A stretch of DNA of 64,000 nucleotides. Origin: Candidatus Nanoarchaeia archaeon (GTDB taxonomy: Archaea; Nanobdellota; Nanobdellia; SCGC-AAA011-G17; GW2011-AR18). Made by a program: the position numbers and the translations under genes. Below the pieces are notes generated by a model. That model worked only from the letters and a program-made list of their open reading frames with translations, was not told where the DNA came from and searched no databases. Where the stretch lies: NCBI GenBank assembly GCA_035289905.1, contig DATDVT010000045.1, positions 132 through 64,131 of the forward strand, written 5' to 3'. This document shows, piece after piece, positions 2,638-61,282 of the stretch (its first letter is position 1; each line of letters begins with the position of its first letter).

Positions 2638-3546
2638 ATGAAAAACAAAGAAATAATCTGTCCGAAGTGCAAGAGTAAGGAAATTAAGAAAGACGGCAAA
2701 CGAAAGACAAATAATAGGGGAAAAGTCCAACGATATAAATGTAAATGTTGCTCAAATAGATTTATCACAGACCCCTTCGCAAGAATGAGAAACACCCCAC
2801 AGAAAATAACCTGTGCTTTAGATTTGTTCTTTAGGGGTTTATCTACTCGTGGAGTTCAAGAACATTTTAAGGCGTTCTTCCCACATAATTCTAACCATAG
2901 CACAATTTTAAGGTGGATTAGAAAATACTCTCTTAAAATTTCTGATTATACAGATAAACTTCAAGTTCAATCTGGCTCTTACATAGAAGTTGATGAGATG
3001 GAATTTCATAGAAGAAAAAGCCATAAAGCAAAATTAGGAATAGATAAAAACTGGTTAATAAATGGAATTGATGTTAAAACAAGATTTCTTATTAATTCCA
3101 CTTATGCAAAGAATAGAAATAAAAAAGAATTAAAATCTGTTCTAAATAAAGTAAAAGATAAAACTCAAGATAGAGTAAAAATTGTTACAACAGATGGATT
3201 AACAACTTACACTAATTTAGTTAAGAAAACTTGGGGTTATGATAACAGATTAGGAAAACACAAAATAATTCATAAAGTTGTAACAGCAAGTAAAGGTGAA
3301 GGTTTTAATATTTGGGTTGAGAGAGTTCATAATTCAATAAGACAAAGAACGCATAGTTTTAGAGGATTACACGGCTCAATTAATTCTGCTTATAGTTTAA
3401 TGAAAGGAATTGAGATATATTACAACTTTATAAAAAAGCACGAGGCATTAAACTACAAAACTCCGTCTGAGTTGGCTATTCCTGAATTAAAATTTGAAAC
3501 TCCTAATAGGTGGATGGAGTTGATTGAAAAATCCAAAACCCTATAA
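2638..3546 (+). CDS. DDE transposase, IS6(IS26)-family-like with N-terminal zinc-finger (archaeal type)
   Basis: 302 aa; N-term CPKCKS...YKCKCC Zn-finger; catalytic-region layout EVDEMEF ... TTDGLTTY ... NIWVERVHNSIRQR ... MKGIEIYYNF parallels IS26 Tnp DETY/TDKAPAY/NNVIECDH/IKGIEV. Confidence 0.75.
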   Translation: MKNKEIICPKCKSKEIKKDGKRKTNNRGKVQRYKCKCCSNRFITDPFARMRNTPQKITCALDLFFRGLSTRGVQEHFKAFFPHNSNHSTILRWIRKYSLKISDYTDKLQVQSGSYIEVDEMEFHRRKSHKAKLGIDKNWLINGIDVKTRFLINSTYAKNRNKKELKSVLNKVKDKTQDRVKIVTTDGLTTYTNLVKKTWGYDNRLGKHKIIHKVVTASKGEGFNIWVERVHNSIRQRTHSFRGLHGSINSAYSLMKGIEIYYNFIKKHEALNYKTPSELAIPELKFETPNRWMELIEKSKTL

Positions 3547-5385: not shown

Positions 5386-6522
5386 ATGAAAATTGGCTTT
5401 TTAATCTCTTACTTTTATCCATTTGAGGGTGGAGCAGAAAACAACTGTTTTTATCTGGCAAAAGAATTAGCTAAAAATAATGAGGTTCATATATTTACTT
5501 CAGACAGAAGAGAAAATACTATTCTAAAAAAAGAAGAAATAATCGATAATATTCATATACATAGAAGCAAAACGCTCTATAGATATAAATATTATTTAAC
5601 ATTCAATCCCTCTTTATTAACAAAAATATTGAAAACTAATTTAGATATATTACATGTTCACAGCTTTGGTTTTATTTGGCATGATTTAGTTGTTTTAATA
5701 AAAAAATTAACCTCAAAAACTATTATTTTTAATACTCCACATGGACCATTTATGGCTTTAAGTTCATACACAAAAAAAGAATTAATTTTCAAAACAATTC
5801 TAGAAAACATAGAAAAAATAACAAATAAGTCATATAATAAAATAATTCAAGTAAATCCTTATCAATACAAATGGCTAACAAAAAAAGGAATAAAAAAAAG
5901 TAATATTTTATATTTACCAAATGGAATTCCAAAAGAAACAATAATTCAAGCAAATAAGAAAGAATTTATAAAAAAATATAATTTAAAAGAAAGATTTATA
6001 ATTTCTTATCTTGGAAGAATACAAAAATATAAGGGAATTGACCAGGTCTTAGGGGTTCTACCAAATATAATAAAAATTCAACCAAATATCTTATTTTTAA
6101 TTATGGGCAAAGATGCTGGTGATTTAAAACGAATAAAAGATATAATAAAAAATAATAACTTAAAAGATTATACTATGATTATAGAAAATATAAATGAAAA
6201 AGAAAAACTAGAAGGGTTGAATGCTTCAGAAATATTTATTTTTCCCTCAGAATGGGAAGCATTTGGAATAGTAACTTTAGAAGCAATGGCACAAGGCAAT
6301 GCAATAATAGCAACAAAAACAGAAGGTTCATTATTTCTAGTAGAAAAAAACAATGGCTTACTTTATGATTATAAAAACATAAAACAACTAGAATCTAAAA
6401 TAAAAGAATTATTAAATAATAGAGAAAAACTAAAAATATTACAAAAAAATAATATTAAAAAAGCAAAAAACTTTACTTGGGATAAAATAGCTAAAAAATT
6501 AGAAAATTATTATAAAAAATGA
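5386..6522 (+). CDS. glycosyltransferase family 4 (GT-B, GT1-like)
   Basis: 378 aa; N-term FYPFEGGAE; C-terminal FPSEWEAFGIVTLEAMAQGNAIIATKTEG (E-x7-E motif region). Confidence 0.75.
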   Translation: MKIGFLISYFYPFEGGAENNCFYLAKELAKNNEVHIFTSDRRENTILKKEEIIDNIHIHRSKTLYRYKYYLTFNPSLLTKILKTNLDILHVHSFGFIWHDLVVLIKKLTSKTIIFNTPHGPFMALSSYTKKELIFKTILENIEKITNKSYNKIIQVNPYQYKWLTKKGIKKSNILYLPNGIPKETIIQANKKEFIKKYNLKERFIISYLGRIQKYKGIDQVLGVLPNIIKIQPNILFLIMGKDAGDLKRIKDIIKNNNLKDYTMIIENINEKEKLEGLNASEIFIFPSEWEAFGIVTLEAMAQGNAIIATKTEGSLFLVEKNNGLLYDYKNIKQLESKIKELLNNREKLKILQKNNIKKAKNFTWDKIAKKLENYYKK

Positions 6523-7892
6523 AAATACTTTTAATATATCCAAATATTATAGAATCGCCTAAAGATATATCACATGGTCTTGCTCAATTATCAAGTATTT
6601 TAAAAAAAGAAGATCATGAAGTACAATTAATAGATTATACATTTAAACCCACAAAAAAAGAAATTATAAACAAAGTAAAAAACTTTAACCCTGATATAAT
6701 TGGGGTTACAATAGCAACAAATGATAAAGAAAATGCATTAAATATCTTAAGGTTGATTAAACCGTATACGAATGCAAAAATAATGGGTGGTGGTTTTCAT
6801 GCAACTATAGCTCCAGAAGATCTAATTAAAGAAGAAATAATAAATGGAGTATGTCTTGGGGAAGGAGAACAAGCTTTTTTAGAATTTGTAAATAATTTAC
6901 AACATAAAAAAAAGATATCAAACATAAAAAATCTTTGGTATAAAACCCCACAAGGATTAGTAAAAAATGAAATAAGAAAATTGATTCAAGATCTTGATTT
7001 ATTACCATTTCCAGATAAATCATTATTTTACTATCAAAAATATATAGATCATAATAGGGGTTTAGCAACATTTATAACTAGCAGGGGATGTCCATATCAA
7101 TGCTCTTATTGTATAAATAAAACATTACAAAATATCTATAAAGGAGAAAAATATACAAGATTTCATTCAATAGATTACCTAATTAAAGAAATAAAAGAAG
7201 TGATTACAAAATATAAAGTAAAAGAAATAGAATTTTATGATGATACTTTTACACTAGATAAAGAAAGAATAAAAGAATTTGTTGATGTATACCCAAAAGA
7301 AATTGGTTTGCCTTTCTATATTAATGCAAGAGTAAATGCAGTAACTAAAGAAGATTTTTTATTATTAAAAAAAGCTGGTTGTGTAAGAGTTTCTATAGGG
7401 ATAGAATCAGGAGATGAAAAGATTAGAAATGAAGTTTTAAATAGAAATATGTCTAATGAACAAATTATAGAGACATTTAGATGGGCTAAAGAAGCAAAAT
7501 TAAAAACATATTCATTTAATATGATAGGAATGCCCTTTGAAACAATAAACTCAATTAAAAAAACAATAAAAATAAACCAAATAATCCAACCAGATTTTAT
7601 AGGTGTATCTTTATTTAATGCATTTAAAGGTACAGAAATATATAACTTATGTGAAAAAAATAATCTGATAAAAAATAAAACAGCAAAGTCATATTTTAGA
7701 GAATCCAATGTAAAATCTATTTCAGAGAAAAAATTACAAAAAATTAGAGAATCGTTTGGTTTTCATGTTTACAAGTATAAACGACCATTTAGAGCGACAA
7801 TAGATTTAATAGATAAAAAATTCTCAAAATATCCAGAAATACAAAAAATAAAAGAGTCTTTATTAAAATATGGCATAAGAAAATTCATTTAA
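6519..7892 (+). CDS. cobalamin-binding (class B) radical SAM protein
   Basis: 457 aa; N-terminal B12-binding Rossmann-like region MKILLIYPN...; SRGCPYQCSYC (CxxxCxxC); start overlaps upstream stop (ATGA). Confidence 0.8.
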   Translation: MKILLIYPNIIESPKDISHGLAQLSSILKKEDHEVQLIDYTFKPTKKEIINKVKNFNPDIIGVTIATNDKENALNILRLIKPYTNAKIMGGGFHATIAPEDLIKEEIINGVCLGEGEQAFLEFVNNLQHKKKISNIKNLWYKTPQGLVKNEIRKLIQDLDLLPFPDKSLFYYQKYIDHNRGLATFITSRGCPYQCSYCINKTLQNIYKGEKYTRFHSIDYLIKEIKEVITKYKVKEIEFYDDTFTLDKERIKEFVDVYPKEIGLPFYINARVNAVTKEDFLLLKKAGCVRVSIGIESGDEKIRNEVLNRNMSNEQIIETFRWAKEAKLKTYSFNMIGMPFETINSIKKTIKINQIIQPDFIGVSLFNAFKGTEIYNLCEKNNLIKNKTAKSYFRESNVKSISEKKLQKIRESFGFHVYKYKRPFRATIDLIDKKFSKYPEIQKIKESLLKYGIRKFI

Positions 7893-8907
7893 GAATATAA
7901 TCTATTATTTTTGGTAAAATATCTTCTTTATCTTGATATAATTGCTTTACCCTTTCTTTAGAATCTTTGTTATTAATTAGCTCTTTAACCTTTTCGAAGG
8001 CCTCATTTTGATTTCTATAAGAATAGACTAATCCATATTTTTCTTGCAATTCTCTAAAAACACCTGATCCATGCTTAGTTTCAACTAGACTATTACATCT
8101 TATAGCATAAGTCCCTAACAAACCGGATTCAATAGCCATTGTTTGACTATCTCCAACAAATAAATCAGAATAATATAATAAATGATGAACTTTATTTAAA
8201 TTAATCTTTAATCTATACTGCTCTAATTCTTTAGGTAATTCATCCTCAGCACTAATAAAAACTTTTCCATGTTCTTTCAAAAAATTAACAATCTTAATTA
8301 AACCTTTTCTATCAAAACCAGTACTTTGGTTTAAATCGTGAAGTGCATTCCAAGCAACAGATCTTATTACAAAAAATCTTTCTTTTTCTTTTAGATTCAA
8401 TTCATCTAAAACTCTTCGATCTGGAGCAAAATAATTGGGATGTAAATAAGCCATCTCAAAAAAACCGTTAACTTTTAAATGTTTCTTACCAAAATTATTC
8501 TCTAAAAAATCAGGCGTACAAATATGATTAGATAGATTATAAGCAACAAAACCATTCAAACTAACTGATTCACAATTTGTAAAAGAAAAACTTTTTTTTC
8601 CTAACAATTTAGACACAATAGAAGTAGTCTCGCCCGGAAAACCTAATAATACATCAATATCCCTGTCTTTAACTAAATGATAGACTAATCTAGTTCTAAT
8701 CTGCCATTCATTAAATAAACCAAAAAAACCTTTTCCAAATTCACCTGTTCTTACAAAAGTAAAACCCTCCTCTTCCAAAAGTTTAATTGCCTCAACTCTA
8801 TTTCTACTAACAATAATACAATTATGACTTTTATCTTCTAACTTCTTAATAATATTTTTAAAAAAATGAACATTTCCTGGATGAGTTATATCTATCAAAA
8901 AATTCAT
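7885..8907 (-). CDS. DUF354-like protein (GT-B-fold-like, common in archaeal glycosylation loci)
   Basis: 340 aa; N-term MNFLIDITHPGNVHFFKNIIKKLEDKSH resembles DUF354 N-terminus (IDIT.P..VhFFK.II..LE); recalled from memory, not searched. Confidence 0.4.
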   Translation of the reverse strand: MNFLIDITHPGNVHFFKNIIKKLEDKSHNCIIVSRNRVEAIKLLEEEGFTFVRTGEFGKGFFGLFNEWQIRTRLVYHLVKDRDIDVLLGFPGETTSIVSKLLGKKSFSFTNCESVSLNGFVAYNLSNHICTPDFLENNFGKKHLKVNGFFEMAYLHPNYFAPDRRVLDELNLKEKERFFVIRSVAWNALHDLNQSTGFDRKGLIKIVNFLKEHGKVFISAEDELPKELEQYRLKINLNKVHHLLYYSDLFVGDSQTMAIESGLLGTYAIRCNSLVETKHGSGVFRELQEKYGLVYSYRNQNEAFEKVKELINNKDSKERVKQLYQDKEDILPKIIDYILK

Positions 8908-8929
8908 AAAAAATTAAAATTAAACCTTC

Positions 8930-10045
8930 TTATAAAACTTCCTTTATACTTTTAACAACTAAATCCTGTTCTTTATCTGTCAAACCAACATACAAAGGAA
9001 TTATTAAAGTATTCCTAACCGCATCCTCAGTAACTGGCAAATTATAAGTATATATCTTCTTATAAATCTCACTATCATGTATTGCCATAATCCCTCTTCT
9101 AGTAGCAACTCCTTTCTTAAGCAACTCTTCCATAATCTCTACTTGAGATTTTTTAGACCTAACTCGAATAATGTAAGATTGATAAGAATGTTTAGCATAA
9201 CTAGGCACAAAAGGAACATCAATATTCTCACATGAAGAAAAAAGATCATTATATCTCAAAGCTACTTCTCTTCGTTTATTTAAAATAAAATCTGCCTTTT
9301 TCAACTGTTCTATTCCCAGAGCAGCCTGAATATCTGTCATCTTGTAATTATAACCTATTACTGGAAAATCTTCAATTACAACAGTACTAGCTGAATGTCG
9401 TTTATCACTAGAAACTGAAGCACCATGAAATCTAAATTGTCTAGCTAAATTTGCTATTGATTCCTCATTTGTTGTCAACATACCCCCTTCACCTGTAGTT
9501 ATAGACTTTCTAGGATGAAAGCTAAAAGACGTTGCCCTAGTTAATGAACCAATTCTTTGATCATTATACTCAGAACCCAAAGCACATGCAGCATCATCAA
9601 CTAAAAACAAATTATTTTCTTCACAAATTCCATTAATTTCATCTAAATCTGCACTCAGACCAACCTGATGAACTGGCATAATCGCTTTAGTTTTTTTAGT
9701 AATTACTTCAGAAATCTTTTTAGGATCTATATTATAAGTTGACCTATCAATATCCACAAAAACAGGAGTAGCACCAGCATGCACTACAGAATTGGCAGTT
9801 GCAATATAAGTATAAGAAGGAATTATGACCTCATCTCCTCTCCCAATACCTAAAGCTAATAAAGAAATATGTAAAGCAGAAGTACATGAATTAACAGCTA
9901 TTGCATATTTAGCTCCAACATAATCAGCAAATAATTTTTCAAATTCTTCAACTTTTTTACCCTGAGTAACCCATCCAGATTCTATAACTGGTTTAATTGC
10001 TTCATATTCTTCAATACCCATATAGGGTTTCATTACGGGAATCAT
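8930..10045 (-). CDS. DegT/DnrJ/EryC1/StrS-family PLP-dependent sugar aminotransferase
   Basis: 371 aa; MIPVMKPYMGIEEYEAIKPVIESGWVTQG..., AIAVNSCTSALHISL, SFHPRKSITTGEGG (PLP-lysine region). Confidence 0.85.
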   Translation of the reverse strand: MIPVMKPYMGIEEYEAIKPVIESGWVTQGKKVEEFEKLFADYVGAKYAIAVNSCTSALHISLLALGIGRGDEVIIPSYTYIATANSVVHAGATPVFVDIDRSTYNIDPKKISEVITKKTKAIMPVHQVGLSADLDEINGICEENNLFLVDDAACALGSEYNDQRIGSLTRATSFSFHPRKSITTGEGGMLTTNEESIANLARQFRFHGASVSSDKRHSASTVVIEDFPVIGYNYKMTDIQAALGIEQLKKADFILNKRREVALRYNDLFSSCENIDVPFVPSYAKHSYQSYIIRVRSKKSQVEIMEELLKKGVATRRGIMAIHDSEIYKKIYTYNLPVTEDAVRNTLIIPLYVGLTDKEQDLVVKSIKEVL

Positions 10046-10560
10046 TTTCTCATCCTCAATAATTTAGCAGGATTCCCAACAACAATAGAATAAGGTTCAA
10101 CATCTTTAGTAACAACAGAACCAGCACCGATCACAGAACCTGTCCCAATTCTTACACTTGGTAATATTATTGAACCTACACCAATATCCACATTATCCTC
10201 AATAACTACCTTCTCATAAGTTTGCTCCCTCTCAATTATTGGAGTATCAAGATTATCATCTAAAACATGTTGTAAAGTTAAAATCTTTACACAAGGACCG
10301 ATACCCACATGATTTCCTATTTCAATACCCCCTCCAGAATGAAAAAAACACATTTGACCAATCCAAGTATGACTTCCTATTTTCATATGATTATTATAGT
10401 AGCCCTTCAAATAAGTATCATGACCAACATAAACATGATTTCCAATTTCTAAATTTTCAGGGTGAAAGACTCGAACATCTCTCTCAAAAATAACATTCTC
10501 TCCTAATTTTTTTATTTTATTTACATCTAAAATTCCATCACCATGAGATCTACATAACAC
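10042..10560 (-). CDS. left-handed beta-helix (hexapeptide) sugar N/O-acetyltransferase
   Basis: 172 aa; hexapeptide repeats IGNHVYVG.., GSVIGAGSVV; C-terminus identical to adjacent paralogue. Confidence 0.75.
   Translation of the reverse strand: MLCRSHGDGILDVNKIKKLGENVIFERDVRVFHPENLEIGNHVYVGHDTYLKGYYNNHMKIGSHTWIGQMCFFHSGGGIEIGNHVGIGPCVKILTLQHVLDDNLDTPIIEREQTYEKVVIEDNVDIGVGSIILPSVRIGTGSVIGAGSVVTKDVEPYSIVVGNPAKLLRMRK
10053..10113. repeat. 61-bp perfect direct repeat (copy 1) at 3' end of acetyltransferase gene
   Basis: TCCTCAATAATTTAGCAGGATTCCCAACAACAATAGAATAAGGTTCAACATCTTTAGTAAC identical at 10571-10631. Confidence 0.8.
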
Positions 10561-11024
10561 TATTTTAACCTCCTCAATAATTTAGCAGGATTCCCAACAA
10601 CAATAGAATAAGGTTCAACATCTTTAGTAACTACCGATCCTGAACCGACTATAGCTCCTTCACCAATAGTAATCCCACACAAAATAACTGCACCAGTACC
10701 AATAGAAGCTTTCTTCTTAACATTTGTAGGGATACAATCCCAATCAGATTCATCCATTAGTTTATTATCTTCAGTAACTGATTTAGGGTATTTATCATTA
10801 ATAAAATTAACATTATGACCTATAAAACAATCATCTTCAATATGAACTCCTTCACAAATAAATGTATGGCTTTGAATCTTTACATCACTCCCTATAACTA
10901 CACCCTTCTGTATCTCAACAAATGCCCCAATCTTAGTTCGGTCTCCAATTTTACAGCCATACAAATTAACTAAAGATTCCTGAAAGATCTTAACATCAAT
11001 ACCTAAATCAACATTAACTATCAT
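10560..11024 (-). CDS. left-handed beta-helix (hexapeptide) acetyltransferase, tandem paralogue
   Basis: 154 aa; hexapeptide repeats; shares 61-bp identical 3' segment with 10042-10560. Confidence 0.75.
   Translation of the reverse strand: MIVNVDLGIDVKIFQESLVNLYGCKIGDRTKIGAFVEIQKGVVIGSDVKIQSHTFICEGVHIEDDCFIGHNVNFINDKYPKSVTEDNKLMDESDWDCIPTNVKKKASIGTGAVILCGITIGEGAIVGSGSVVTKDVEPYSIVVGNPAKLLRRLK
10571..10631. repeat. 61-bp perfect direct repeat (copy 2)
   Basis: identical to 10053-10113; flanks diverge immediately on both sides. Confidence 0.8.
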
Positions 11025-11125
11025 AAAAAAATAATAAAAAAATAATTTAAAGGAATATGTATGCTATAAAATATATTATTTATTAATACAATAATCTTAA
11101 TAAATAATCAAAAAATAAAATCCAA

Positions 11126-12103
11126 ATGCCAAAAAATAAAAACATTTTAGTAACAGGAGGGGCAGGATTTATTGGTTGTCATTTAGTTGAAGAATTAATT
11201 AAAGATAATAGAGTCACTGTAGTTGATGATTTCTCAGTAGGTTCAATGGATAATTTAAAAGAATTTGTAAACAATCCTAATTTAAAAGTAATCAAAGAAG
11301 ATATAAGAAATCAAGAAAGAATGATTGAATTAACAAAAGAAATAGATATTATTTACCATATGGCAGTAGTTTGTCTAAGAGTCTCAATAAATAATCCAAT
11401 GATTGTAGACGAAATTAATTCAACAGGTACTTTAAAAATGCTAATTGCCGCACAAAAAAATAATGTTAAAAAATTTATTTACATTTCAAGTTCAGAAGCA
11501 TATGGATCAGCACTAAAAGCTCCAATGGATGAAACTCATCCTTTAATTCCAATAACTCTTTATGGTGCAAGTAAAGCTGCTGGAGAATTATATACTCAAT
11601 CCTTTCATTTAACTTATGGTTTACCAACTGTAATAGTTAGACCATTTAATACTTATGGACCAAAAGAACATTTTGAAGGGGCATCAGGAGAAGTAATTCC
11701 TAAATTTGTAATCAGAATAATGAATAACATCACTCCAGTAATATTCGGAGATGGAGAACAAACTAGGGATTTCACATATGTAAAGGACACTGTTGACGGA
11801 ATTATTCAAGCATCAGATTGTCCAGAATTAATTGGAGAAACAGTTAACATTGCAAGGGGAGAAGAAGTATCAATAAATAGAATATTAAACATAGTTAAAA
11901 GTGTATTAAACAAAGATATACAAGCAGAATACAGAGAAGGAAGACCAGGGGATGTAAGAAGACATTATGCAGATATAAACAAGGCAAAAAAATTCTTTAA
12001 TTATCAGCCAAATACAAGTATTGAAGATGGAATAAAGAAATATATAACTTGGTTAAAAACACAAAACATAGATTTAACTAAAGATAAAACAATTAATTGG
12101 TAA
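11126..12103 (+). CDS. NAD-dependent epimerase/dehydratase (extended SDR; UDP-sugar 4-epimerase/decarboxylase-like)
   Basis: 325 aa; ILVTGGAGFIGCHLVEEL (GxxGxxG), YGASKAAGE (YxxxK). Confidence 0.8.
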   Translation: MPKNKNILVTGGAGFIGCHLVEELIKDNRVTVVDDFSVGSMDNLKEFVNNPNLKVIKEDIRNQERMIELTKEIDIIYHMAVVCLRVSINNPMIVDEINSTGTLKMLIAAQKNNVKKFIYISSSEAYGSALKAPMDETHPLIPITLYGASKAAGELYTQSFHLTYGLPTVIVRPFNTYGPKEHFEGASGEVIPKFVIRIMNNITPVIFGDGEQTRDFTYVKDTVDGIIQASDCPELIGETVNIARGEEVSINRILNIVKSVLNKDIQAEYREGRPGDVRRHYADINKAKKFFNYQPNTSIEDGIKKYITWLKTQNIDLTKDKTINW

Positions 12104-12237
12104 ATATACTCAGGGGTATGTTTGTATGGGTAATTTATGGTATTTCAATTTAAAGTTTAGCTATAGTTGCAACTGATATTTTAGGTACCACTTTAAATAT
12201 ACTCTCAATGAAATATCCCTACAAAAAAGTAAATTAA

Positions 12238-13254
12238 TTATAAGAAATCTTCATGCCCAATTCTCTTTAATTGTTCTAATAATTCATTATGATGATGAAA
12301 TCTACATTCAGTACAATCCTTTATAGGATCTAAATCTAACTTTTTATTCATCCAAACATTCTTGAAACCCTCTTTCTTAACATTACCTAAGGGATAACAA
12401 TTTTTATGCACACAACCGTAACATGTATATAAATTTCCATCTGGAATAATAATTCCTTGAAAATTATAGATATAACATTTATTATAAGATCTTTTTTCTG
12501 CACCATAATAATTAGTTCCAAAATGAGGGACAAAAAGCACACTAATTCTTCTATTCTTAGATTCAGATTCAACTAATTCTCTAACTTCTTGCAAAATATA
12601 ATCTCCCACTGCCAATTTTTCATAACGAGCCGGTCTAAATTGAATATAATCAAAACCAAATTCATCAAATAAATCAATTGCATCTTTTGCACCCATATAA
12701 GATTCTGGACTAATAACATAACCACCCCCCAAGGTAACTTTACTTCCAAATTCTTTTTTATATTTAACTAAAGTTTTACAATTATCAATTACACGATCAT
12801 ATGAGTTACATCGATGAACCTGACTATGCATTTCTCTGTTTCCTGCATCAAAAGTAATTCTAATAAAAGTACAAATTTGAACAAGATCTTTAGCAGTAGC
12901 ATCATCAATTAAAGCACCATTTGTAAATAACCCAACAGAAATTCCCAAAGAATTAGCTAGTTTCATAGAAGGTAAAGTTGCAGGATTTAACAAAGGTTCC
13001 CCCCCACCGCTATATAACAAAGCTTTAAGATTAAATTCTTTTAATTCACGAATTATTTTAGATAGATCTTCCTCATTCATTTCTAAAGTTTTATCAAATT
13101 TATTAAGAATTCTAGGTTCACACCAAATACAATCATAATTACATCTATTAGTTGGATGAAGCTCTATACTAACTGGATCTGGGATCCCTCCTTCTAAAAA
13201 AGTTTTAATTCTATCTGAGTGCCTAAATAATTTAATACCATTCCAATTAGTCAT
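12238..13254 (-). CDS. radical SAM protein with C-terminal Cys-rich SPASM/twitch-like domain
   Basis: 338 aa; HPTNRCNYDCIWC (CxxxCxxC); C-term CYGCVHKNC...CTEC; no N-terminal B12 domain. Confidence 0.7.
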   Translation of the reverse strand: MTNWNGIKLFRHSDRIKTFLEGGIPDPVSIELHPTNRCNYDCIWCEPRILNKFDKTLEMNEEDLSKIIRELKEFNLKALLYSGGGEPLLNPATLPSMKLANSLGISVGLFTNGALIDDATAKDLVQICTFIRITFDAGNREMHSQVHRCNSYDRVIDNCKTLVKYKKEFGSKVTLGGGYVISPESYMGAKDAIDLFDEFGFDYIQFRPARYEKLAVGDYILQEVRELVESESKNRRISVLFVPHFGTNYYGAEKRSYNKCYIYNFQGIIIPDGNLYTCYGCVHKNCYPLGNVKKEGFKNVWMNKKLDLDPIKDCTECRFHHHNELLEQLKRIGHEDFL

Positions 13255-13368
13255 AATTGTTTTTTAGAAAAATTATATAAAAAGATTACTATCTTCAAGA
13301 ATCTATTGTAAAAACAGTAATATTACAAAAGGCATTAATTTTAAAAAAGAGAAATTTAATAAAATGCA

Positions 13369-14472
13369 GTGGAAATTCCTTTAATCAATTTAAAAAGACA
13401 ATATTTGGAAATTAAAGAAGAAATTAATAATTCTATTCAAGAAGTAATAAATGAAAGCTCTTTTTGTGTAGGCAGGCAAATAAAAGAATTTGAAAATAAT
13501 TTTGCAAATTATTTAAATATTAAACATGCAATTGGTGTTGCAAATGGAACTGCAGCTTTACATTTAGCATTAGAAGCAATAGATATAAAAGAAAATGATG
13601 AGATAATAACTACATCTAACACCTTTATAGCCACAGTAGAAGCTATTTGTTACCAAAAAGCTAAACCCATTCTAGTAGATATTGACGAAGAAACATATAC
13701 TATTGATATAAACAAAATCGAAGAAAAAATTACAAATAAAACAAAAGCAATAATTCCCGTACATCTATTTGGCCATCCTTGTGAAATGGATGCAATTAAA
13801 AAAATAGCTAATAAATATAACTTAAAAATAATTGAAGACTGTGCACAAGCCCATGGCGTTGAATACAAAGGACAAAAGGTAGGTACCATTGGAGATATAG
13901 GATGTTTTAGTATGTATCCTAGCAAAATATTAGGTGCTTACGGTGATGCAGGTGCAATAATTACAAATAATTATCTTTTTGCAGAAAAAATTAAAAAGTT
14001 GAAAAACCATGGAGAATCAACAAAATATAACCATGAACTTATGGGCTATAACTATAGACTAGATGGGATTCAAGCAGCTATACTAAATGTTAAATTAAAA
14101 TACCTAAATAAATGGTTAGAGAAAAGAAGAGAAATAGCAAGAATTTATAATGAAGAAATAAAAGAGTTAGTTACTATACCTTCTGAAAAAGCTTTCGCAA
14201 AACATGGATATTATTTATATGTAATAAGGGCTAAAGAAAGAAACAATTTGTTAGAATTTTTAAAAATAAAAGGGATTTCATGTGGAATACATTACCCCAT
14301 ACCCATCCATTTACAACTCGCTTATCAATCTTTAAATATGGGTGAAACAAAACTACCAATAACTGAAAGAATAAGTAAAGAAATATTGTCAGTTCCATTA
14401 TATCCAGAAATGACAAACGAAGAGATAGATTATGTAATAAATTCAATAAAAGAATATTTTAACAAAAAATGA
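13369..14472 (+). CDS. DegT/DnrJ/EryC1-family sugar aminotransferase (second copy); GTG start
   Basis: 367 aa; NFANYLNIKHAIGVANGTAALHLAL, FSMYPSKILGAYGDAGA; GTG at 13369. Confidence 0.85.
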   Translation: MEIPLINLKRQYLEIKEEINNSIQEVINESSFCVGRQIKEFENNFANYLNIKHAIGVANGTAALHLALEAIDIKENDEIITTSNTFIATVEAICYQKAKPILVDIDEETYTIDINKIEEKITNKTKAIIPVHLFGHPCEMDAIKKIANKYNLKIIEDCAQAHGVEYKGQKVGTIGDIGCFSMYPSKILGAYGDAGAIITNNYLFAEKIKKLKNHGESTKYNHELMGYNYRLDGIQAAILNVKLKYLNKWLEKRREIARIYNEEIKELVTIPSEKAFAKHGYYLYVIRAKERNNLLEFLKIKGISCGIHYPIPIHLQLAYQSLNMGETKLPITERISKEILSVPLYPEMTNEEIDYVINSIKEYFNKK

Positions 14473-15380
14473 AAAGATTAGCAATTATTAAGTATACTAT
14501 TAGCATAATCATTTTAGGCTTACTTCTAGTTACAATTAAACCCTCAAAAATTTTAGCAGTATTAAATCTTATAAACTTAAAATTAATTTTAATTATAATA
14601 ATATTAGCTTTTGCATTAATTTTACTTACAACAATTAATTTAAAAATATTTATATCACCCTATATTAAAAAAATATCATTCATTGAATTTTTTAAAAAAT
14701 ATCTAGTAACTTGGTCTATTAGTTCATTCACACCTGGAAAAATAGGAGATTTCTCTCTTTCATATTTATTAAAAGATAAGATTTCCCCTGAAGAATCAAT
14801 AGCTGCATTAATTCTAGATAAATTAATTACTTTAATAGTACTCTCGGTAATAGGAATTATTGGAGTTTTCTACATTCTTCCGAAAGAATATGCATATTTA
14901 GTTACAATAAGTTTAATTTTTATAATAGGCTTAGTAGTATATTTTATTAATTCAAAAAAAATAAAAAATTACATTGCTAATAAGTTCTTTAAAAAATACA
15001 CTATTCAAATAGAAAACTTTGAAAAAACAATTAAAGAATATATTAGAAATCACAAAAAATTAATAATAATTAATGCGATAATAACTCTAATTATTTGGAC
15101 AACAAGCAGCTCAATAATTTATATTTCATTACATTTATTCAATCAAGAAATTCCATTCATAACAACAGTATTTATCACTTGTTTGGGTAACTTAAGTTTT
15201 CTAGTTCCAATAACCATTAATGGACTAGGCTTAAGAGAAGCGATAAATATCTTCTTTTTTGAGAAATATTTTATTCCAAAAGAGTTTACTCTTACAATAT
15301 TCTTACTAATTACTGTACTAAACTATCTATTTGCATTTATATTTATCCAACTTTTTATGACAGAAAAAACAATAAATTAA
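14469..15380 (+). CDS. UPF0104 / LPG-synthase-TM (flippase-like) family membrane protein
   Basis: 303 aa polytopic; signature INGLGLREA (GLGxRE motif of PF03706-type proteins). Confidence 0.55.
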   Translation: MKRLAIIKYTISIIILGLLLVTIKPSKILAVLNLINLKLILIIIILAFALILLTTINLKIFISPYIKKISFIEFFKKYLVTWSISSFTPGKIGDFSLSYLLKDKISPEESIAALILDKLITLIVLSVIGIIGVFYILPKEYAYLVTISLIFIIGLVVYFINSKKIKNYIANKFFKKYTIQIENFEKTIKEYIRNHKKLIIINAIITLIIWTTSSSIIYISLHLFNQEIPFITTVFITCLGNLSFLVPITINGLGLREAINIFFFEKYFIPKEFTLTIFLLITVLNYLFAFIFIQLFMTEKTIN

Positions 15381-16366
15381 TCTTTCTTCCAGTTATATTC
15401 ACCAAATTTTTTATTTAAATAATTTTTAGGAAAAACTCTTAAAATTTTATTCATCACAATATCTGCAGGTCTATGACAATTCAACCAACATAGATTACAA
15501 CTAATATGTTGCTTCCTAAGTTCAATTGCTTCTTTAGAGTTCCATACTTCTTCTAAAGTTTGATTGTATAAATTTCCAATTTTATTACCTAAACCTTGAC
15601 AAAATAAAACATCTCCTGCAGAAGTAATAATAACGTTACCTCTTGTACTTAAACAAGGTAGCTTCAACTTCCCCTTTTTCCATTTATAATAACTTTCTAA
15701 ATATGGATTATAATATTTATCCTTAACATAATAATAATCTTTTGGAACTTCCTGAGTATTAAAATAAGGAACAGTATCATAAAAACTGATCATACATAAA
15801 ACTCCTAATTGATCACACAAATTCATAACATATAAAAAATCTTCATTAGTATTATTATTACTTACAGTATAATGTAATTTGATTTTAGTAAATTTCTTAA
15901 GTTGTTCAACCACATTAACTATCTTACTAACATTATCAATACCCCTTATCCTCTTCTGTGTTTCTGGACGACCATCTAAAGAAATTGCTAAATTCTTAAC
16001 AAAATACTTTTTTACTGTTTCTATTAGTTTTTCATCTAAAATACAATTAGAAAATAAAGTATAGTTTAAACCTCGCTCATTAAATAATTCCAAAATTTTT
16101 TCAAAGTTAGGATGTAACAAAGGCTCTCCGCCAGTAATTCCAAAATTACATCCTTTAACTATATCCTGATCTAATACTTTTCTTATCAAATCAATACTTA
16201 GGTCATACTTAGGCATTTGATTCCAAATAAAACAAATACTACAATTAGAATTACATCTATTAGTAAGTATAAAAGTTACTTCATAAGGCTGATTTTTAAA
16301 AATTCTATAAGCTCTTTTCATATACGAAGATGCTAAATTCAAAGTACGATAATTTAAAAAATTCAT
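15377..16366 (-). CDS. radical SAM/SPASM-domain protein
   Basis: 329 aa; TNRCNSNCSIC; C-terminal CQGLG...CNLCWLNC. Confidence 0.7.
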   Translation of the reverse strand: MNFLNYRTLNLASSYMKRAYRIFKNQPYEVTFILTNRCNSNCSICFIWNQMPKYDLSIDLIRKVLDQDIVKGCNFGITGGEPLLHPNFEKILELFNERGLNYTLFSNCILDEKLIETVKKYFVKNLAISLDGRPETQKRIRGIDNVSKIVNVVEQLKKFTKIKLHYTVSNNNTNEDFLYVMNLCDQLGVLCMISFYDTVPYFNTQEVPKDYYYVKDKYYNPYLESYYKWKKGKLKLPCLSTRGNVIITSAGDVLFCQGLGNKIGNLYNQTLEEVWNSKEAIELRKQHISCNLCWLNCHRPADIVMNKILRVFPKNYLNKKFGEYNWKKD

Positions 16367-16416: not shown

Positions 16417-17847
16417 TCATAATCTTCGCATATCCATAACATTCATTTTTAAAAAAAAGTACATACCTTTTAAATACCTCTGTATATCCTCCCCGTTCTT
16501 TATTCTAGCAAGCTTTCGTTTAAAGAAACCTAATCTTAAATAACACCTCCGATATGCCTCTTTTTGTAGTTTTACAAGTTCTTCACGGCTATTATACCCT
16601 TTTGAAAGATATATTGGGAATAGACTAGTATAATGACTATAGTCAAAATCTACATTTCCTTCAGCAACAAAATCTTCATAAAGTTTCGTACCTGGATAAG
16701 GGGTAGTAAGTGTAAAAATAGGATAATCAACATCCAACTCAATCGCAAAATCAATAGTTTTTTTCCCCATTTCAGGAGTTTCTCCTGGCAAACCCAACAT
16801 AAAAGATCCTTTAACTTCTATTCCAGCTTCATGTGCCCAATGAACAGCATTTCTTATTTGGAACAAAGATTGACCCTTTTGAAGACTATTCAACAATTCC
16901 TGATTAGCAGACTCTATTCCATAAGAAATACCCCAACAGCCTACAGAAGCCATTTTTTTTAAAAGCTCGAGAGTTACAAAATTTACTTTCGCATAACATG
17001 TCCAAGTTAAGTCTAGATTTTCTGTATGAAGTGCATCACAAAAATTCAATATCCATTCTTTATCCAAAACAAATTCATCATCAAAAAAATAAATTTCTCT
17101 AACCCCATACTGCTTAATTAAATATTTTATTTCTTCAATAACTCTTGAAACAGAATTTCTCCTATAGGTGGTATGCATAAAACTAGACTCATTACAAAAT
17201 TTACACATCCGATAAGTGCATCCCCTACTTGTTATCATATTTATAGTGGGCAGTCTCTTATATTGATTTGGTACTGGAATATATTTATCTATATCAAAAA
17301 ATTTTCTTAATGGAATCGGTAATGTATCTAAATCCGTTATCATAATATCATTTTCAGTTTTTGTAACAACCTCTTTTTCTCTATAATAAATACCACGTAC
17401 CATAGAAATAGAAGTATTAGCTGTTATAGCATTAACAAGATTCAATAATTTATATTCCCCTTCTCCAAAAATAATATAATCAATCTCTTTTATGTCTTCA
17501 AGAATTTTTTCTGCAAAGATACTCGCATGTGAACCACCGCAAATAATAGGTATAGTAAAACTAGATTTCAACACCTTAGCTATAGTATACGCCTCTGGAG
17601 CTTGAGATGTAAGAATACTAATACAAACAATATCTGTTTTAAATTCTTTAACCTCATACAAAAGTTGTTCTTTTGTTAACGGAGTAATAAATAAATCTAT
17701 GACTTTACAGTTATACCCTCCATTCTCTAAAACTGTAGCTAAAGAGGCAATACCTAAAGGAGGAAAAAGACCAGCAATTCTTTTTCTCTTAATATTATCT
17801 ACTAAAAATCCATGCCCTGGTGTAGGATTAATAAATAAAATATTCAT
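16417..17847 (-). CDS. cobalamin-binding class B radical SAM protein (non-canonical Cx4Cx2C)
   Basis: 476 aa; N-term B12-like domain; SRGCTYRMCKFC. Confidence 0.8.
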   Translation of the reverse strand: MNILFINPTPGHGFLVDNIKRKRIAGLFPPLGIASLATVLENGGYNCKVIDLFITPLTKEQLLYEVKEFKTDIVCISILTSQAPEAYTIAKVLKSSFTIPIICGGSHASIFAEKILEDIKEIDYIIFGEGEYKLLNLVNAITANTSISMVRGIYYREKEVVTKTENDIMITDLDTLPIPLRKFFDIDKYIPVPNQYKRLPTINMITSRGCTYRMCKFCNESSFMHTTYRRNSVSRVIEEIKYLIKQYGVREIYFFDDEFVLDKEWILNFCDALHTENLDLTWTCYAKVNFVTLELLKKMASVGCWGISYGIESANQELLNSLQKGQSLFQIRNAVHWAHEAGIEVKGSFMLGLPGETPEMGKKTIDFAIELDVDYPIFTLTTPYPGTKLYEDFVAEGNVDFDYSHYTSLFPIYLSKGYNSREELVKLQKEAYRRCYLRLGFFKRKLARIKNGEDIQRYLKGMYFFLKMNVMDMRRL

Positions 17848-19598: not shown

Positions 19599-20672
19599 TT
19601 GCCTCACAAAAAAATGATTAAAACAGTATATAATTTGCTCTTTTCAAAGAAAGAACCGTTTAGCATAGTCCACTTTATAACGAATAAATGTAATGCCCAC
19701 TGCCTTCATTGTTTTCTAAATCTTGATAATCCAGAAATATATAAAGATGAATTAACCCTTGAAGAAATTAAAAAATTGAGTAAAACATTCGGCAACTCCT
19801 TATTTAATATTAATTTAACGGGTGGAGAACCATTTCTAAGAGAAGATATAAACGAAATAACAATAACTTACTTAAAAAATACAACTATTCAATCATTATT
19901 TATTAGCACAAATGGATATTTTACAGGAAAAATAAAAGAGTTAATAGATAGATTTTTACAAGAAAAAATAAATAAAAAATTAATATTTTCAATATCCATA
20001 GACAATTTTGAAGAAGAACATGATAATCTAAGAAAGGTAAAGGGATTATTCAAAAATGCAATACAAAGCTATAAACTAATAAATTCTTATAAAGATAAAA
20101 ACATAATTGCCAATATTGGAATCACAATCACAGATAAAAATTATAATAATGTAATTCCTTTATATAGCTATCTAAAAGAACAAGAAATAAAAGCAATAAC
20201 CACTACAATTATGCGAAAGGAGGGTAGAATTAAAAAAATAGAGAATAAAGAAGCAATTCTTGAATCTTACAAAAAATTATCAAAATTAATAAAAAAAGAT
20301 GCCGATGAAGGTTTTGGAAAAACATTACAAGGAAGGTTAATGAATGCAAAAAATATAATAGCTAATGATATAATAAAAGATATCTATCTAAATAATCAAT
20401 TTAAAGCACCATGCATTGCTGGTTCATTATTCGGAGTAATTTATGCAAATGGAGATATTTATCCTTGTGAAATTTTAAACAGAAACTCAGGTAATTTAAG
20501 AGAATACAACTTAAACTTCTTAGAATTATGGAAAGAAAAAAAGAATAAAGAACTTAAGAAATTTATAAAAACCAGCAAATGTTCCTGCACATATGAATGT
20601 ACATGGTCAATAAACATAATATCAAACCCAAAATTCATCCTGAAACTATTAATGGAATTAATAAAAAAGTAG
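19599..20672 (+). CDS. radical SAM/SPASM-domain protein
   Basis: 357 aa; TNKCNAHCLHC; C-term CIAGSLFGVIYANGDIYPCE...CSCTYEC. Confidence 0.7.
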   Translation: MPHKKMIKTVYNLLFSKKEPFSIVHFITNKCNAHCLHCFLNLDNPEIYKDELTLEEIKKLSKTFGNSLFNINLTGGEPFLREDINEITITYLKNTTIQSLFISTNGYFTGKIKELIDRFLQEKINKKLIFSISIDNFEEEHDNLRKVKGLFKNAIQSYKLINSYKDKNIIANIGITITDKNYNNVIPLYSYLKEQEIKAITTTIMRKEGRIKKIENKEAILESYKKLSKLIKKDADEGFGKTLQGRLMNAKNIIANDIIKDIYLNNQFKAPCIAGSLFGVIYANGDIYPCEILNRNSGNLREYNLNFLELWKEKKNKELKKFIKTSKCSCTYECTWSINIISNPKFILKLLMELIKK

Positions 20673-21681: not shown

Positions 21682-23091
21682 ATGAAAATTTGCATAATCT
21701 ATCTAAAATATTCAGAAGAAGCTCCGAAAAATCAACCCTCTGTAAAAGTAGTAGCTCAAAACTATGGAATTTATCCTTCGGTTACTTTGGGTTATGTAGC
21801 TGCAATAGCTGAAAAAGCAGGTCATAATGTTAAATTTATAGATGCGAATGCCCTTAATTTATCTAATCAAGATGTTATAAAAGAAATAAATTTATTTAAA
21901 CCAAATATTTTAGCTTTCACGATTACGACATATTTATTTCATCAAACAATTGAAGCAATCAGAGAAATTAAACAAAAAACAAACACACCTGTCTTAGTTG
22001 GAGGAGTACATGTAAGTCTTTATCCAAAAGAAACCTTAACTTATAAAGAAATAGATTATGCTCTTATAGGAGAAGCTGAAACATGCCTTCCTGAATTCTT
22101 AGAAGCATTAGAAAAAAATCAAGATTTCTCAAAGGTAAAATCTTTATGTTACAAAGAAAATAATGAAATAAAAATTAATGAATTATCTATTCAAGAAATG
22201 GATATAAATAAGGTTCTGTTTCCAGCTAGACATTTGTTTCCAAATGAAAAATATTACTCGTTTATTTCTCAAAGAAAAAATTTTACAGGAATGATAACTA
22301 GTAGAGGTTGCCCATTTAGATGTATATATTGTGAACAAGGAAGCAAAAAATTTAGATTTGCTGATGCTAAAAGAGTAGTTGAAGAATTCACTGAATGTTA
22401 TAATAACTATAAAATAAGAGAAATAGATATATTTGATTCTTCATTTACAGTTAAAAAAGATAGAGTATTAGACATCTGTAAAGAATTAATTTCGAATAAA
22501 ATAGATATCTCTTGGTCAATTCGTTCTAGAGTAGATTGTATAGATAAAGAAATGCTTAAAGAATTAAAGAAAGCAGGATGTATGAGGGTCTATTATGGAA
22601 TAGAATCTGGTGTCCCAAGAATTTTAGAAACTTTAAGAAAAGAAACAAATATTCAAAGAATAGAAGAAACTATAAAAGAAACTAAAATGGCTGGAATAAA
22701 TACCTTTGGCTACTTTATGCTAGGTTGTCCAGGAGATACTACTGAAACTATTAAAAAAACAATTGAATTTGCAAAAAAATTAAAATTAGATTATGCACAA
22801 TTCTCAAAAGTTAGTCCTCTACCAGGTACTGAATTATATGATAAACTACTTAAACCAAAATTAAAAGAAGATTATTGGTCTAAATATATTCTTAATAAGA
22901 ACTATGAATATAATCTACCAAGACCAGATTGTAATTTATCTGAAGAGGAGATACAAAAGTTAGTAGAAACAGCATATAAAGAATTCTACTTTCGTCCAAA
23001 ATACATAACAAAAGCAATACTGAGGATTAAATCATTCAATGAATTAAAAAGATCTACTAAAGCAGTATTTGAAATGTTAACTAAATTTTGA
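21682..23091 (+). CDS. cobalamin-binding class B radical SAM protein
   Basis: 469 aa; SRGCPFRCIYC. Confidence 0.8.
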   Translation: MKICIIYLKYSEEAPKNQPSVKVVAQNYGIYPSVTLGYVAAIAEKAGHNVKFIDANALNLSNQDVIKEINLFKPNILAFTITTYLFHQTIEAIREIKQKTNTPVLVGGVHVSLYPKETLTYKEIDYALIGEAETCLPEFLEALEKNQDFSKVKSLCYKENNEIKINELSIQEMDINKVLFPARHLFPNEKYYSFISQRKNFTGMITSRGCPFRCIYCEQGSKKFRFADAKRVVEEFTECYNNYKIREIDIFDSSFTVKKDRVLDICKELISNKIDISWSIRSRVDCIDKEMLKELKKAGCMRVYYGIESGVPRILETLRKETNIQRIEETIKETKMAGINTFGYFMLGCPGDTTETIKKTIEFAKKLKLDYAQFSKVSPLPGTELYDKLLKPKLKEDYWSKYILNKNYEYNLPRPDCNLSEEEIQKLVETAYKEFYFRPKYITKAILRIKSFNELKRSTKAVFEMLTKF

Positions 23092-61073: not shown

Positions 61074-61282
61074 AAGCAACACAAAAATTGAAAAAAAAGG
61101 CCAAAGAGACAGAAATAAAGATTAAAATTAAAGCACGAATAACTAGTAAAAAAATAAAAAATACAGTACAAAGAATAGATCATAAAAAAATTGCATTAAG
61201 AGCTGCATTTTTATTACTCCTTCCTTTAGGGATTATAATAAGCTCTGCATATCTAATATGGAATTATCTACTAAAAAAATGA
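61070..61282 (+). CDS. small lysine-rich protein with C-terminal TM helix
   Basis: 70 aa; ORF only. Confidence 0.25.
   Translation: MKATQKLKKKAKETEIKIKIKARITSKKIKNTVQRIDHKKIALRAAFLLLLPLGIIISSAYLIWNYLLKK

Follow-up and report, generated by a model that had tools for sequence, protein, structure and literature searches.

A radical SAM enzyme as candidate C3 dehydrogenase in an archaeal diamino-sugar cassette that lacks a Gfo-type oxidase

Positions 7885-15380 of a 64-kb stretch of DNA from a Candidatus Nanoarchaeia archaeon (the window) very probably hold an archaeal (DPANN) copy of a conserved cassette for making a nucleotide sugar with two N-acylated amino groups. The segment encodes two aminotransferases of the DegT family (DegT#1 and DegT#2), two hexapeptide acyltransferases (Hexapep), an extended short-chain dehydrogenase/reductase (SDR) and a radical S-adenosylmethionine (SAM) enzyme (the rSAM) that is divergent from DegT#2, all of which the preliminary description of this DNA had placed correctly (Table 1). 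From the sequences compared here, the canonical cassette appears to include an oxidoreductase of the Gfo/Idh/MocA family (Gfo), while the archaeal copy is without one and has the rSAM between the SDR and DegT#2. As the best single hypothesis, held tentatively and by analogy with BtrN of butirosin biosynthesis, we propose that the rSAM is a radical C3 dehydrogenase that supplies DegT#2.

The proposed pathway has two branches. In the first, either 4,6-dehydration or oxidative decarboxylation by the SDR, with a tightly bound NAD, would yield a 4-keto sugar; DegT#1 would then aminate C4, and a hexapeptide transferase would acylate the new amine. In the second, DegT#2 would take a 3-keto sugar, and the second hexapeptide transferase would acylate that amine. 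The 3-keto sugar is presumably made in bacterial cassettes by the Gfo oxidoreductase of the same operon. In the archaeal copy, the 5'-deoxyadenosyl radical of the rSAM would abstract the C3 hydrogen, the second electron would go to a four-Cys auxiliary cluster, and the resulting 3-keto sugar would be transaminated by DegT#2, which would amount to BtrN-type chemistry in another rSAM family. The substrate, the position oxidised, and the supply of DegT#2 by the rSAM rather than by an unlinked enzyme are what we infer from the comparisons below.

The C4 branch appears to be self-contained. The SDR has an N-terminal glycine-rich motif (GGAGFIG) and the catalytic motif SSSEAYG...YGASK (S122-S123-E124; Y146-GAS-K150), and S121, S123, E124, Y146 and K150 were invariant in 25 orthologues (53-62% identity). 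It is a common protein: over 7,000 homologues were found at E ≤ 1e-40, and the top matches were 53-62% identical. With the alignment anchored on YG, its catalytic Ser has a Glu at +2, as have RmlB (T-D-E), GMD, UXS and ArnA (T-S-E), where GalE-type epimerases have Thr, Ser or Ala. By these motifs the SDR is an NAD-dependent nucleotide-sugar oxidoreductase of the dehydratase/decarboxylase type (S-S-E...YxxxK), and is likely to be the source of the 4-keto sugar for DegT#1. The best solved relatives of DegT#1, perosamine synthase (254 bits) and ArnB (252 bits), are both C4 aminotransferases. The lysine that binds pyridoxal phosphate (PLP) is present in DegT#1 (FHPRK) and in DegT#2 (MYPSK); as all three DegT proteins of the window retain it, they should be aminotransferases and not dehydrases. 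Because the SDR would be an NAD-dependent oxidoreductase and DegT#1 is of the C4 type, this half of the module should need no extra oxidase.

The combination of an S/T-x-E...YxxxK SDR, a C4-type DegT and an acyltransferase recalls the PglF/E/D, LegB/C/H, GDP-perosamine (GMD/Per) and ArnA/ArnB routes. The cassette differs from these 4-keto routes in that its NCBIfam matches are all below cutoff (for the SDR, LegB 4,6-dehydratase 217 bits against a cutoff of 475, RmlB 189 against 365 and GalE 151 against 262). Overall the SDR is closest to an epimerase-like (4-epimerase-like) solved protein, 6dnt (243 bits), which has Ala where the SDR has its Glu.

DegT#2 falls into another clade. Its best solved relatives were 7b0d (430 bits), QdtB (375), WlaRG (335), DesV (275) and WbpE (255). 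The last four are C3 aminotransferases, and DegT#2 is, at the level of family assignment, a C3-type aminotransferase (QdtB/DesV/WbpE clade). A literature search on PDB 7B0D returned nothing relevant.

What could supply DegT#2 with a 3-keto sugar? As the preliminary description had noted, no Gfo/Idh/MocA domain was found, here in the 57 open reading frames (ORFs) of at least 100 aa across the window, and a tblastn search with five Gfo/Idh/MocA proteins from related cassettes against the six window frames also found nothing (best E 0.64). The window likewise contained no cupin 3,4-ketoisomerase, no UDPG_MGDP_dh or Epimerase_2 domain (those of the WbpA 6-dehydrogenase and the WbpI 2-epimerase) and no NeuB-type synthase; since the last is not present, a nonulosonic-acid pathway is not expected. 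The cassette is part of a single glycan island (~5.3-59 kb, ~54 kb, 44 genes), which is complete within the window, as its left flank consists of nucleotide-salvage genes and a transposase, and the DNA on its right of unrelated genes. Past the right end of the window lie genes for two proteins with Glycos_trans_3N/Glycos_transf_3/PYNP_C domains and one with DUF58, which are unrelated to the cassette. Judged by sequence, of the two DegT enzymes of the module only DegT#2 is without a recognisable supplier of its keto sugar in the island.

The DegT#2 branch is similar to WbpE/WbpD of the UDP-2,3-diacetamido-2,3-dideoxy-glucuronic acid pathway in combining a C3-type DegT with a hexapeptide N-acyltransferase. 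Methanococcus maripaludis also uses a pathway of the Wbp type. In the bacterial orthologous cassettes the gene order Gfo - Hexapep - DegT (loci L014 and L166, below) recalls the WbpB route. The window is unlike the Wbp system in having no Gfo/Idh/MocA protein, UDP-GlcNAc 6-dehydrogenase or recognisable 2-epimerase, in that DegT#2 is closer to QdtB and WlaRG than to WbpE, and in having a second, C4-directed branch (SDR, DegT#1 and a Hexapep). Thus, the Wbp layout suggested in the preliminary description describes the DegT#2 branch but not DegT#1, which is of C4 type and served by the adjacent SDR, and its phrase "lacking an NAD-dependent oxidoreductase" is accurate for a Gfo-type oxidase but not for the SDR, which is itself predicted to be an NAD-dependent sugar oxidoreductase.

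The strongest argument that an enzyme is missing comes from related cassettes. An operon in Nitrospirae (L166) has the order Gfo/Idh/MocA - Hexapep - DegT - SDR - DegT - Hexapep - GT2 (GT, glycosyltransferase), which is the five-enzyme set of the window plus a Gfo gene and minus the rSAM; no rSAM was found in 15 kb of this locus. Its proteins are 48% identical to DegT#2, 56% to the SDR, 58% to DegT#1 and 37-38% to the Hexapeps. The WcaF-like Hexapep of the window is 37% identical to both Hexapeps of L166, and the NeuD-like one shares 34-38% identity with the Hexapep that adjoins the C3-type DegT in L014, L020 and L166. The L166 Gfo is a generic member of its family, with uncharacterised oxidoreductases as its best solved matches and 63 bits to DgpA.

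Similar arrangements were found elsewhere. The operon contexts of two SDR orthologues were read, L166 and a locus from the Candidate Phyla Radiation (L167, 5967-10059). The latter has the order Gfo - SDR (59%) - DegT (49% to DegT#1) - formyltransferase, beside PMT_2 and GT2 genes, and its Gfo gene runs into the start of the SDR orthologue. An SDR-DegT pair followed by a formyltransferase, next to PMT_2 (ArnT-like) and GT2 genes, is a further resemblance to the 4-keto routes named above. A metagenome scan with DegT#2 gave 10 loci. In L014 the order is Gfo (confirmed by Pfam) - Hexapep - DegT (52% to DegT#2); in L080 a DegT (47% to DegT#2) has a Gfo/KijD10-like ORF directly upstream; and L020 has a DegT 44% identical to DegT#2 together with, at the cluster's end, a truncated Gfo-like ORF that only phmmer detected. 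A Gfo-like gene was present in the same operon or cluster in four of the four clusters with SDR or DegT#2 relatives whose neighbours were seen. Because the L166 cassette and three other related clusters carry Gfo-like genes, we regard the missing 3-oxidase as real for the island.

The rSAM is a protein of 338 aa with 37 residues ahead of its cluster motif. The radical SAM motif CX3CX2C (C38/C42/C45) was invariant in 60 family members, as were the auxiliary Cys residues C278, C314 and C317; C260 was at least 90% conserved, and the spacing is CX12GX4C...CX2C. Apart from the last four, no C-terminal Cys is conserved, the CX2CX5CX3C motif of a seven-Cys SPASM domain is absent, and no conserved Cys was found in the family beyond the cluster ligands. 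The C-terminal domain is therefore predicted to be a single-cluster, twitch-like truncation of SPASM and not a seven-Cys SPASM, in keeping with the SPASM/twitch assignment in the preliminary description. The AlphaFold2 model of the protein had a high confidence score (pLDDT 91.8). An exhaustive profile search (E ≤ 1e-30) showed the family to comprise 3,917 clusters at 50% identity, mostly of ~350 aa and matched over their full length. There is no NCBIfam model for it, and a literature search for a characterised member found nothing relevant.

The genomic contexts of this family were read at 66 genome loci and 72 viral loci and by individual look-ups, ~150 related loci overall. No peptide-maturation genes were recognised around family members, and the identifiable contexts were all of the glycan or nucleotide-sugar kind. 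Neighbours within 3.5 kb were counted at the 106 loci with a good family member, using clustering with coverage filters and community detection. Extended or RmlD-like SDRs occurred at 26 of these loci (directly adjacent in 14), and so did UDP-glucose/GDP-mannose dehydrogenases (adjacent in 19). SAM methyltransferases (MT) were neighbours at 17 loci, B12-binding rSAM enzymes at 13, cupins at 8, all viral, and heptose-pathway genes at 7. The dehydrogenases accompany a bacterial clade of ~365 aa (L021-L064, from Desulfovibrio, Geobacter, Synergistaceae, Planctomycetes and others), in which the dehydrogenase gene directly follows the rSAM relative in 19 of 26 cases, often together with a methyltransferase gene. 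This suggests that the clade acts on nucleoside diphosphate (NDP)-uronic acids.

About 50 full-length relatives are encoded by phages (L092-L163, IMG/VR contigs; also MW202801.1 19640-24303 and MT408532.1 160922-169749), often in small glycosylation cassettes between capsid and tail genes or beside phage heptose-nucleotide genes. For example, a podovirus has the order rSAM-GT-PhyH-MT-NodB-GT between its capsid and tail genes, a cyanophage combines heptose genes, the rSAM relative, a methyltransferase and a GT, and a further phage has the rSAM relative with a GMD-like SDR and GTs. In another phage group, a tight operon has the order GT47-like - rSAM - (170 aa) - DegT. Neither of the phage neighbour families, 308 aa and 170 aa long, could be annotated usefully beyond a marginal GT47-like match. 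These cassettes hint that phages tailor their own glycans by radical chemistry. Taken together, the contexts indicate a family of probable nucleotide-sugar and glycan tailoring enzymes, for which DegT would be an occasional rather than a defining partner.

How well does the window fit a BtrN-type reaction? In butirosin biosynthesis, BtrN, a twitch rSAM 2-deoxy-scyllo-inosamine dehydrogenase, is followed by the DegT-family aminotransferase BtrS. The window rSAM resembles BtrN in having CX3CX2C and a predicted single four-Cys auxiliary cluster in a truncated SPASM domain, and it adjoins, as in the BtrN/BtrS pair, a DegT-family aminotransferase that needs a ketone. By analogy, the reaction proposed for it would share with BtrN the abstraction of a carbinol hydrogen and the transfer of an electron to the auxiliary cluster. 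A profile of the isolated C-terminal domain aligned to BtrN residues 168-237, if weakly (E 0.047) and about as well as to anSME (E 0.019). The nucleotide-sugar enzymes around the family, among them the DegT of the tight phage operons and short RmlD-like reductase-type SDRs, are also the partners that one would expect for an enzyme that makes ketones. It is unlike BtrN in belonging to another family, in its length (338 aa compared to ~250) and in its archaeal nucleotide-sugar and glycan context, which is not that of an aminocyclitol antibiotic cluster.

Several results weigh against the rSAM being the C3 dehydrogenase that feeds DegT#2. When the family profile was compared with solved structures, SkfB (84 bits), CteB (76), DesII (75), anSME (75), MoaA (72), BlsE (65) and then the viperins all came ahead of BtrN (43 bits, E 3e-10). 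Among the Foldseek matches of the rSAM model, SuiB came first, and DesII (TM 0.65-0.71), SkfB, viperin and BlsE were also at the top; BtrN was not among the 50 best. The rSAM is thus no closer to BtrN than to many other rSAM enzymes. Identity to it within the family does not exceed 31%, so that function cannot be transferred from relatives. Its position beside DegT#2 is also weak evidence: in a gene-order permutation of the 44 island genes, a DegT lay beside a SPASM-type rSAM with a chance of 35%, and some DegT lay beside any rSAM with a chance of 83%. With 11 rSAM genes among 44 in the island, adjacency of an rSAM to any given gene is unremarkable, and the DegT-rSAM adjacency is by itself not significant.

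Further points on the same side come from the related loci. DegT genes were neighbours at 10 of the 106 loci, and the commonest neighbours of the family were SDRs and NDP-sugar 6-dehydrogenases, not DegT. Relatives of the rSAM stand in L014 (29-30% identity) in a cluster with a Gfo and a DegT#2-type aminotransferase, and in L020 (25%) in a cluster with a DegT#2-type gene and the truncated Gfo-like ORF; because both have an rSAM relative along with a Gfo-like gene, the family is no general substitute for the oxidase. In L167 there is a Gfo gene yet no C3-type DegT, for which reason we can only infer the role of Gfo in the cassette. The case for gene displacement has one fully orthologous cassette (L166) behind it, and a Gfo gene may be present elsewhere in the genome, outside the window. 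Of the BtrN/BtrS-like logic in the preliminary description, the absence of Gfo compared to the L166 cassette, the twitch Cys pattern and the sugar-linked context hold up, whereas a likeness to BtrN in sequence or fold does not. The broader proposal, that the rSAM displaced the Gfo 3-oxidase and that the twitch family at large consists of nucleotide-sugar radical oxidoreductases, with aminotransferases or SDR reductases to capture the keto products, we consider unlikely.

It is quite possible, on balance doubtful, that the rSAM is instead an independent tailoring enzyme (for example a radical epimerase, or a modifier of nucleotide sugars or lipid-linked glycans) with no role in amination, DegT#2 being fed by an oxidase encoded elsewhere or by the SDR. 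The permutation result, with 8 B12-type and 3 SPASM/twitch-type rSAM enzymes in the island, favours this explanation, as does the co-occurrence of the L014 and L020 relatives with Gfo and a C3-type DegT. So do the family contexts, most of which are without DegT (heptose genes in L010 and the cyanophage, a GMD-like SDR with GTs, and GT/MT/NodB cassettes), and the SDRs that directly adjoin relatives of 24-31% identity in L005, L010, L012 and L014. However, with Gfo-like genes in four of four related clusters, the absence of such a gene from a complete 54-kb island would then be unexpected. Known twitch epimerases use an additional Cys as hydrogen donor (HygY/NeoN work), and the lack of an extra conserved Cys to donate hydrogen argues against an epimerase in particular. 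The explanation also leaves the chemistry of the rSAM unspecified.

The pairing of rSAM relatives with SDRs raises a more specific alternative, in which the rSAM, like AprD4, dehydrates a vicinal diol of the nucleotide sugar, and the keto-deoxy sugar so formed is either reduced by an SDR or transaminated by DegT#2. AprD4/AprD3 carry out the C3' deoxygenation of apramycin with an rSAM dehydratase and an NAD(P)H reductase, and a recurrent pairing of rSAM and SDR reductase was indeed seen in the family. SDRs were joint most frequent among its neighbours; short reductase-type SDRs (SSADVY...YGFHK) lie 3-25 bp from the rSAM relative in L017, L030 and L053; and L010, which also has heptose-pathway genes, encodes a thiamine-diphosphate enzyme and an alcohol dehydrogenase of the zinc type along with its rSAM relative and SDR, a set that we take to recall branched 3,6-dideoxy-sugar pathways. 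Against a dedicated pair in the window, the partner SDRs are heterogeneous in their catalytic motif, and the window SDR, unlike AprD3, is widespread, with orthologues among its 55-62% identical ones in two sampled operons that are without an rSAM, which indicates that it has no dedicated rSAM partner. We consider this alternative improbable. A strict two-enzyme rSAM-SDR module, to which the adjacent genes in L005, L010, L012 and L014 had pointed, was rejected on the same two grounds, unrelated partner motifs and the two rSAM-free orthologue operons.

A reaction sequence like that of DesI/DesII/DesV is still less probable. Here the SDR would make a 4-keto-6-deoxy sugar, DegT#1 would install the C4 amine, the rSAM would eliminate that amine to give a 3-keto-4,6-dideoxy sugar, and DegT#2 would aminate C3. 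As in TDP-desosamine biosynthesis, a C4 aminotransferase, an rSAM and a C3 aminotransferase stand together, and all enzyme types needed lie within 6 kb. DegT#2 matches DesV, and DesII was the best match of the rSAM in a single-sequence search against solved structures (E 1.5e-7) and was near the top by fold. The logic of the cassette is different, since L166 has one Hexapep per DegT and no rSAM, which argues that both amines are kept and acylated, and the window also has two Hexapeps. The rSAM missed the cutoff of the DesII equivalog model TIGR04426 by a wide margin (46.8 bits against 450), with the rSAM core alone aligned. Its architecture is different too: DesII combines a single cluster with a six-helix domain at its N-terminus and a C-terminal domain that is without a cluster (PMC11434129), whereas the rSAM has four conserved auxiliary Cys and is without the N-terminal domain.

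Finally, that the rSAM is a peptide-modifying SPASM maturase which lies in a glycan island by chance is exceedingly improbable, and we rejected it: although maturases of peptides made on the ribosome and modified after translation (RiPPs) gave the top profile scores (SkfB and CteB) and SuiB the top Foldseek match, those scores reflect no more than the superfamily at large, four C-terminal Cys are present instead of seven, neither RiPP-type genes nor a recognition domain turned up, the 114-bp and 134-bp spacers on either side of the rSAM gene contain no precursor ORF and leave no room for a small one, and the identifiable neighbours at ~150 related loci belong to glycan or nucleotide-sugar pathways. 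The preliminary description had named this alternative as one to be looked for, and its expectation that the other two SPASM rSAM enzymes of the island do likewise found no support; the closest models of the one at 19599-20672 are of NirJ2/AhbD type (98 bits, NCBIfam).

Within the cassette, the rSAM and DegT#2 genes are divergent with a spacer of 114 bp, and the rSAM and SDR genes convergent with one of 134 bp (Table 1). The start of the flippase-like gene overlaps the stop of DegT#2 by 4 bases, which suggests translational coupling. The gene for the DUF354 protein is retained in all copies of the contig; the protein had no NCBIfam match and no counterpart in the L166 or L167 cassettes, and could be a glycosyltransferase or a nucleotide-sugar hydrolase/epimerase.

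The surroundings of the cassette, in a window of ~27% G+C, are those of a glycan assembly system. The island encodes GTs of the GT2, GT4 and GT1 types plus a WecA/AglH-like GT4, three PMT_2 (ArnT-like) proteins, two LPG_synthase_TM flippase-like proteins, two Wzx-like flippases and three DegT proteins; an archaeal STT3/AglB oligosaccharyltransferase and an IF-2B-family protein are also encoded. The number of rSAM genes (8 B12-binding and 3 Radical_SAM + SPASM) is exceptionally high for a glycan island; they lie at 5386-56388 among the GT2/GT4, PMT_2, LPG_synthase_TM and AglB genes. This wealth suggests heavy radical tailoring, for example C-methylation, of the surface glycans of this DPANN archaeon.

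Table 1. Features of the cassette, the glycan island and its flanks, in window coordinates.
Feature	Position	Strand	Assignment and matches
DUF354 protein	7885-8907	-	Pfam PF04007, E 1.3e-13, full length; last gene of the Hexapep-Hexapep-DegT#1-DUF354 operon
DegT#1	8930-10045	-	PLP-dependent sugar aminotransferase, C4 type; Pfam DegT, E 3.6e-121
Hexapep, WcaF-like	10042-10560	-	hexapeptide (left-handed beta-helix) acyltransferase; Pfam Hexapep; NCBIfam WcaF 82 bits, below cutoff
Hexapep, NeuD/PglB/VioB-like short form	10560-11024	-	hexapeptide acyltransferase; Pfam Hexapep, E 5e-20; NCBIfam NeuD_NnaD 73 bits, below cutoff
SDR	11126-12103	+	extended SDR (Epimerase/GDP_Man_Dehyd)
rSAM	12238-13254	-	Radical_SAM plus partial SPASM match (Pfam profile positions 1-49 of 67)
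DegT#2	13369-14472	+	PLP-dependent sugar aminotransferase, C3 type; Pfam DegT, E 2.1e-124
Flippase-like membrane protein	14469-15380	+	LPG_synthase_TM; Pfam PF03706, E 6e-35; NCBIfam TIGR00374 66 bits (cutoff 43.2)
SPASM-type rSAM	15377-16366	-	Radical_SAM + SPASM
SPASM-type rSAM	19599-20672	+	Radical_SAM + SPASM
B12-binding rSAM	6519-7892		
B12-binding rSAM	16417-17847		
B12-binding rSAM	21682-23091		
B12-binding rSAM	23077-24516		
B12-binding rSAM	35851-37236		
B12-binding rSAM	37951-39351		
B12-binding rSAM	43556-45013	-	similar to proteins of L014 and L020
B12-binding rSAM	53405-54865		
DUF362 protein	31292-32497	-	similar to proteins of L014 and L020
WecA/AglH-like GT4	46233-47228		
DegT#3	49746-50855	-	second amino-sugar cassette
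PglD-like acetyltransferase	50852-51484	-	second amino-sugar cassette; PglD_N domain
SDR of second cassette	51521-52549	-	SSSMVYG...YGGMK
STT3/AglB oligosaccharyltransferase	56594-59233		archaeal type
DDE transposase	2638-3546	+	IS240-like
HAD_2 hydrolase, N-terminal half	61258-61584	+	108 aa
HAD_2 hydrolase, C-terminal half	61586-61912	+	108 aa

Two proteins encoded elsewhere in the island recur in the bacterial clusters with DegT#2 relatives. The B12-like rSAM on the reverse strand (Table 1) is 49-50% identical to bacterial proteins of L014 (33-1266) and L020 (1536-3119), which lie directly upstream of Hexapep - DegT (C3-type) and are far more conserved than the twitch rSAM. The B12-like rSAM may be the actual partner in function of the 3-acetamido branch, which it could for instance methylate; the similarity also suggests that the cassette has moved horizontally. 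The DUF362 protein recurs (31-36% identity) in the DegT#2/twitch-rSAM clusters L014 (6728-8014) and L020 (4893-6161); the L014 protein also matches 4Fe-4S ferredoxin domains and lies directly upstream of the rSAM relative. The DUF362 protein could serve as a partner in electron transfer or be one more enzyme that modifies the sugar; a literature search on DUF362 found nothing relevant.

A second, separate amino-sugar cassette, formed by DegT#3, an acetyltransferase and an SDR, is located near the WecA/AglH-like GT4 gene and resembles a bacillosamine-type (PglF/E/D) set. Just beyond the left edge of the island, the DDE transposase gene stands between nucleotide-salvage and HAD/transaldolase genes. 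Of the two neighbouring ORFs near the right end of the window, the first matches the N-terminal and the second the C-terminal half of a single HAD_2 hydrolase, as if a stop or a frameshift had split the gene; ORF lengths differ at the same spot in a related contig.

The building blocks of the pathway proposed here are already known. New are the possibility that a radical enzyme replaces a WbpB-type oxidase, and the very large family of twitch rSAM enzymes, which is uncharacterised and linked to nucleotide-sugar metabolism in anaerobes and phages. If the rSAM does supply DegT#2 with a 3-keto sugar, it would be the first radical SAM dehydrogenase to act on a nucleotide sugar in primary glycan biosynthesis and a clear case of non-orthologous displacement of the WbpB-type oxidase, and it would extend BtrN-type chemistry beyond antibiotic pathways to the mainstream biosynthesis of cell-surface glycans. 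Whatever its chemistry, the rSAM marks a family of 3,917 clusters found in nucleotide-sugar and glycosylation gene sets of anaerobes, of DPANN and Candidate Phyla Radiation organisms and of many phages. Once its reaction is assigned, thousands of genes would gain an annotation, and unusual sugars in the glycans of archaea and phages could find an explanation.

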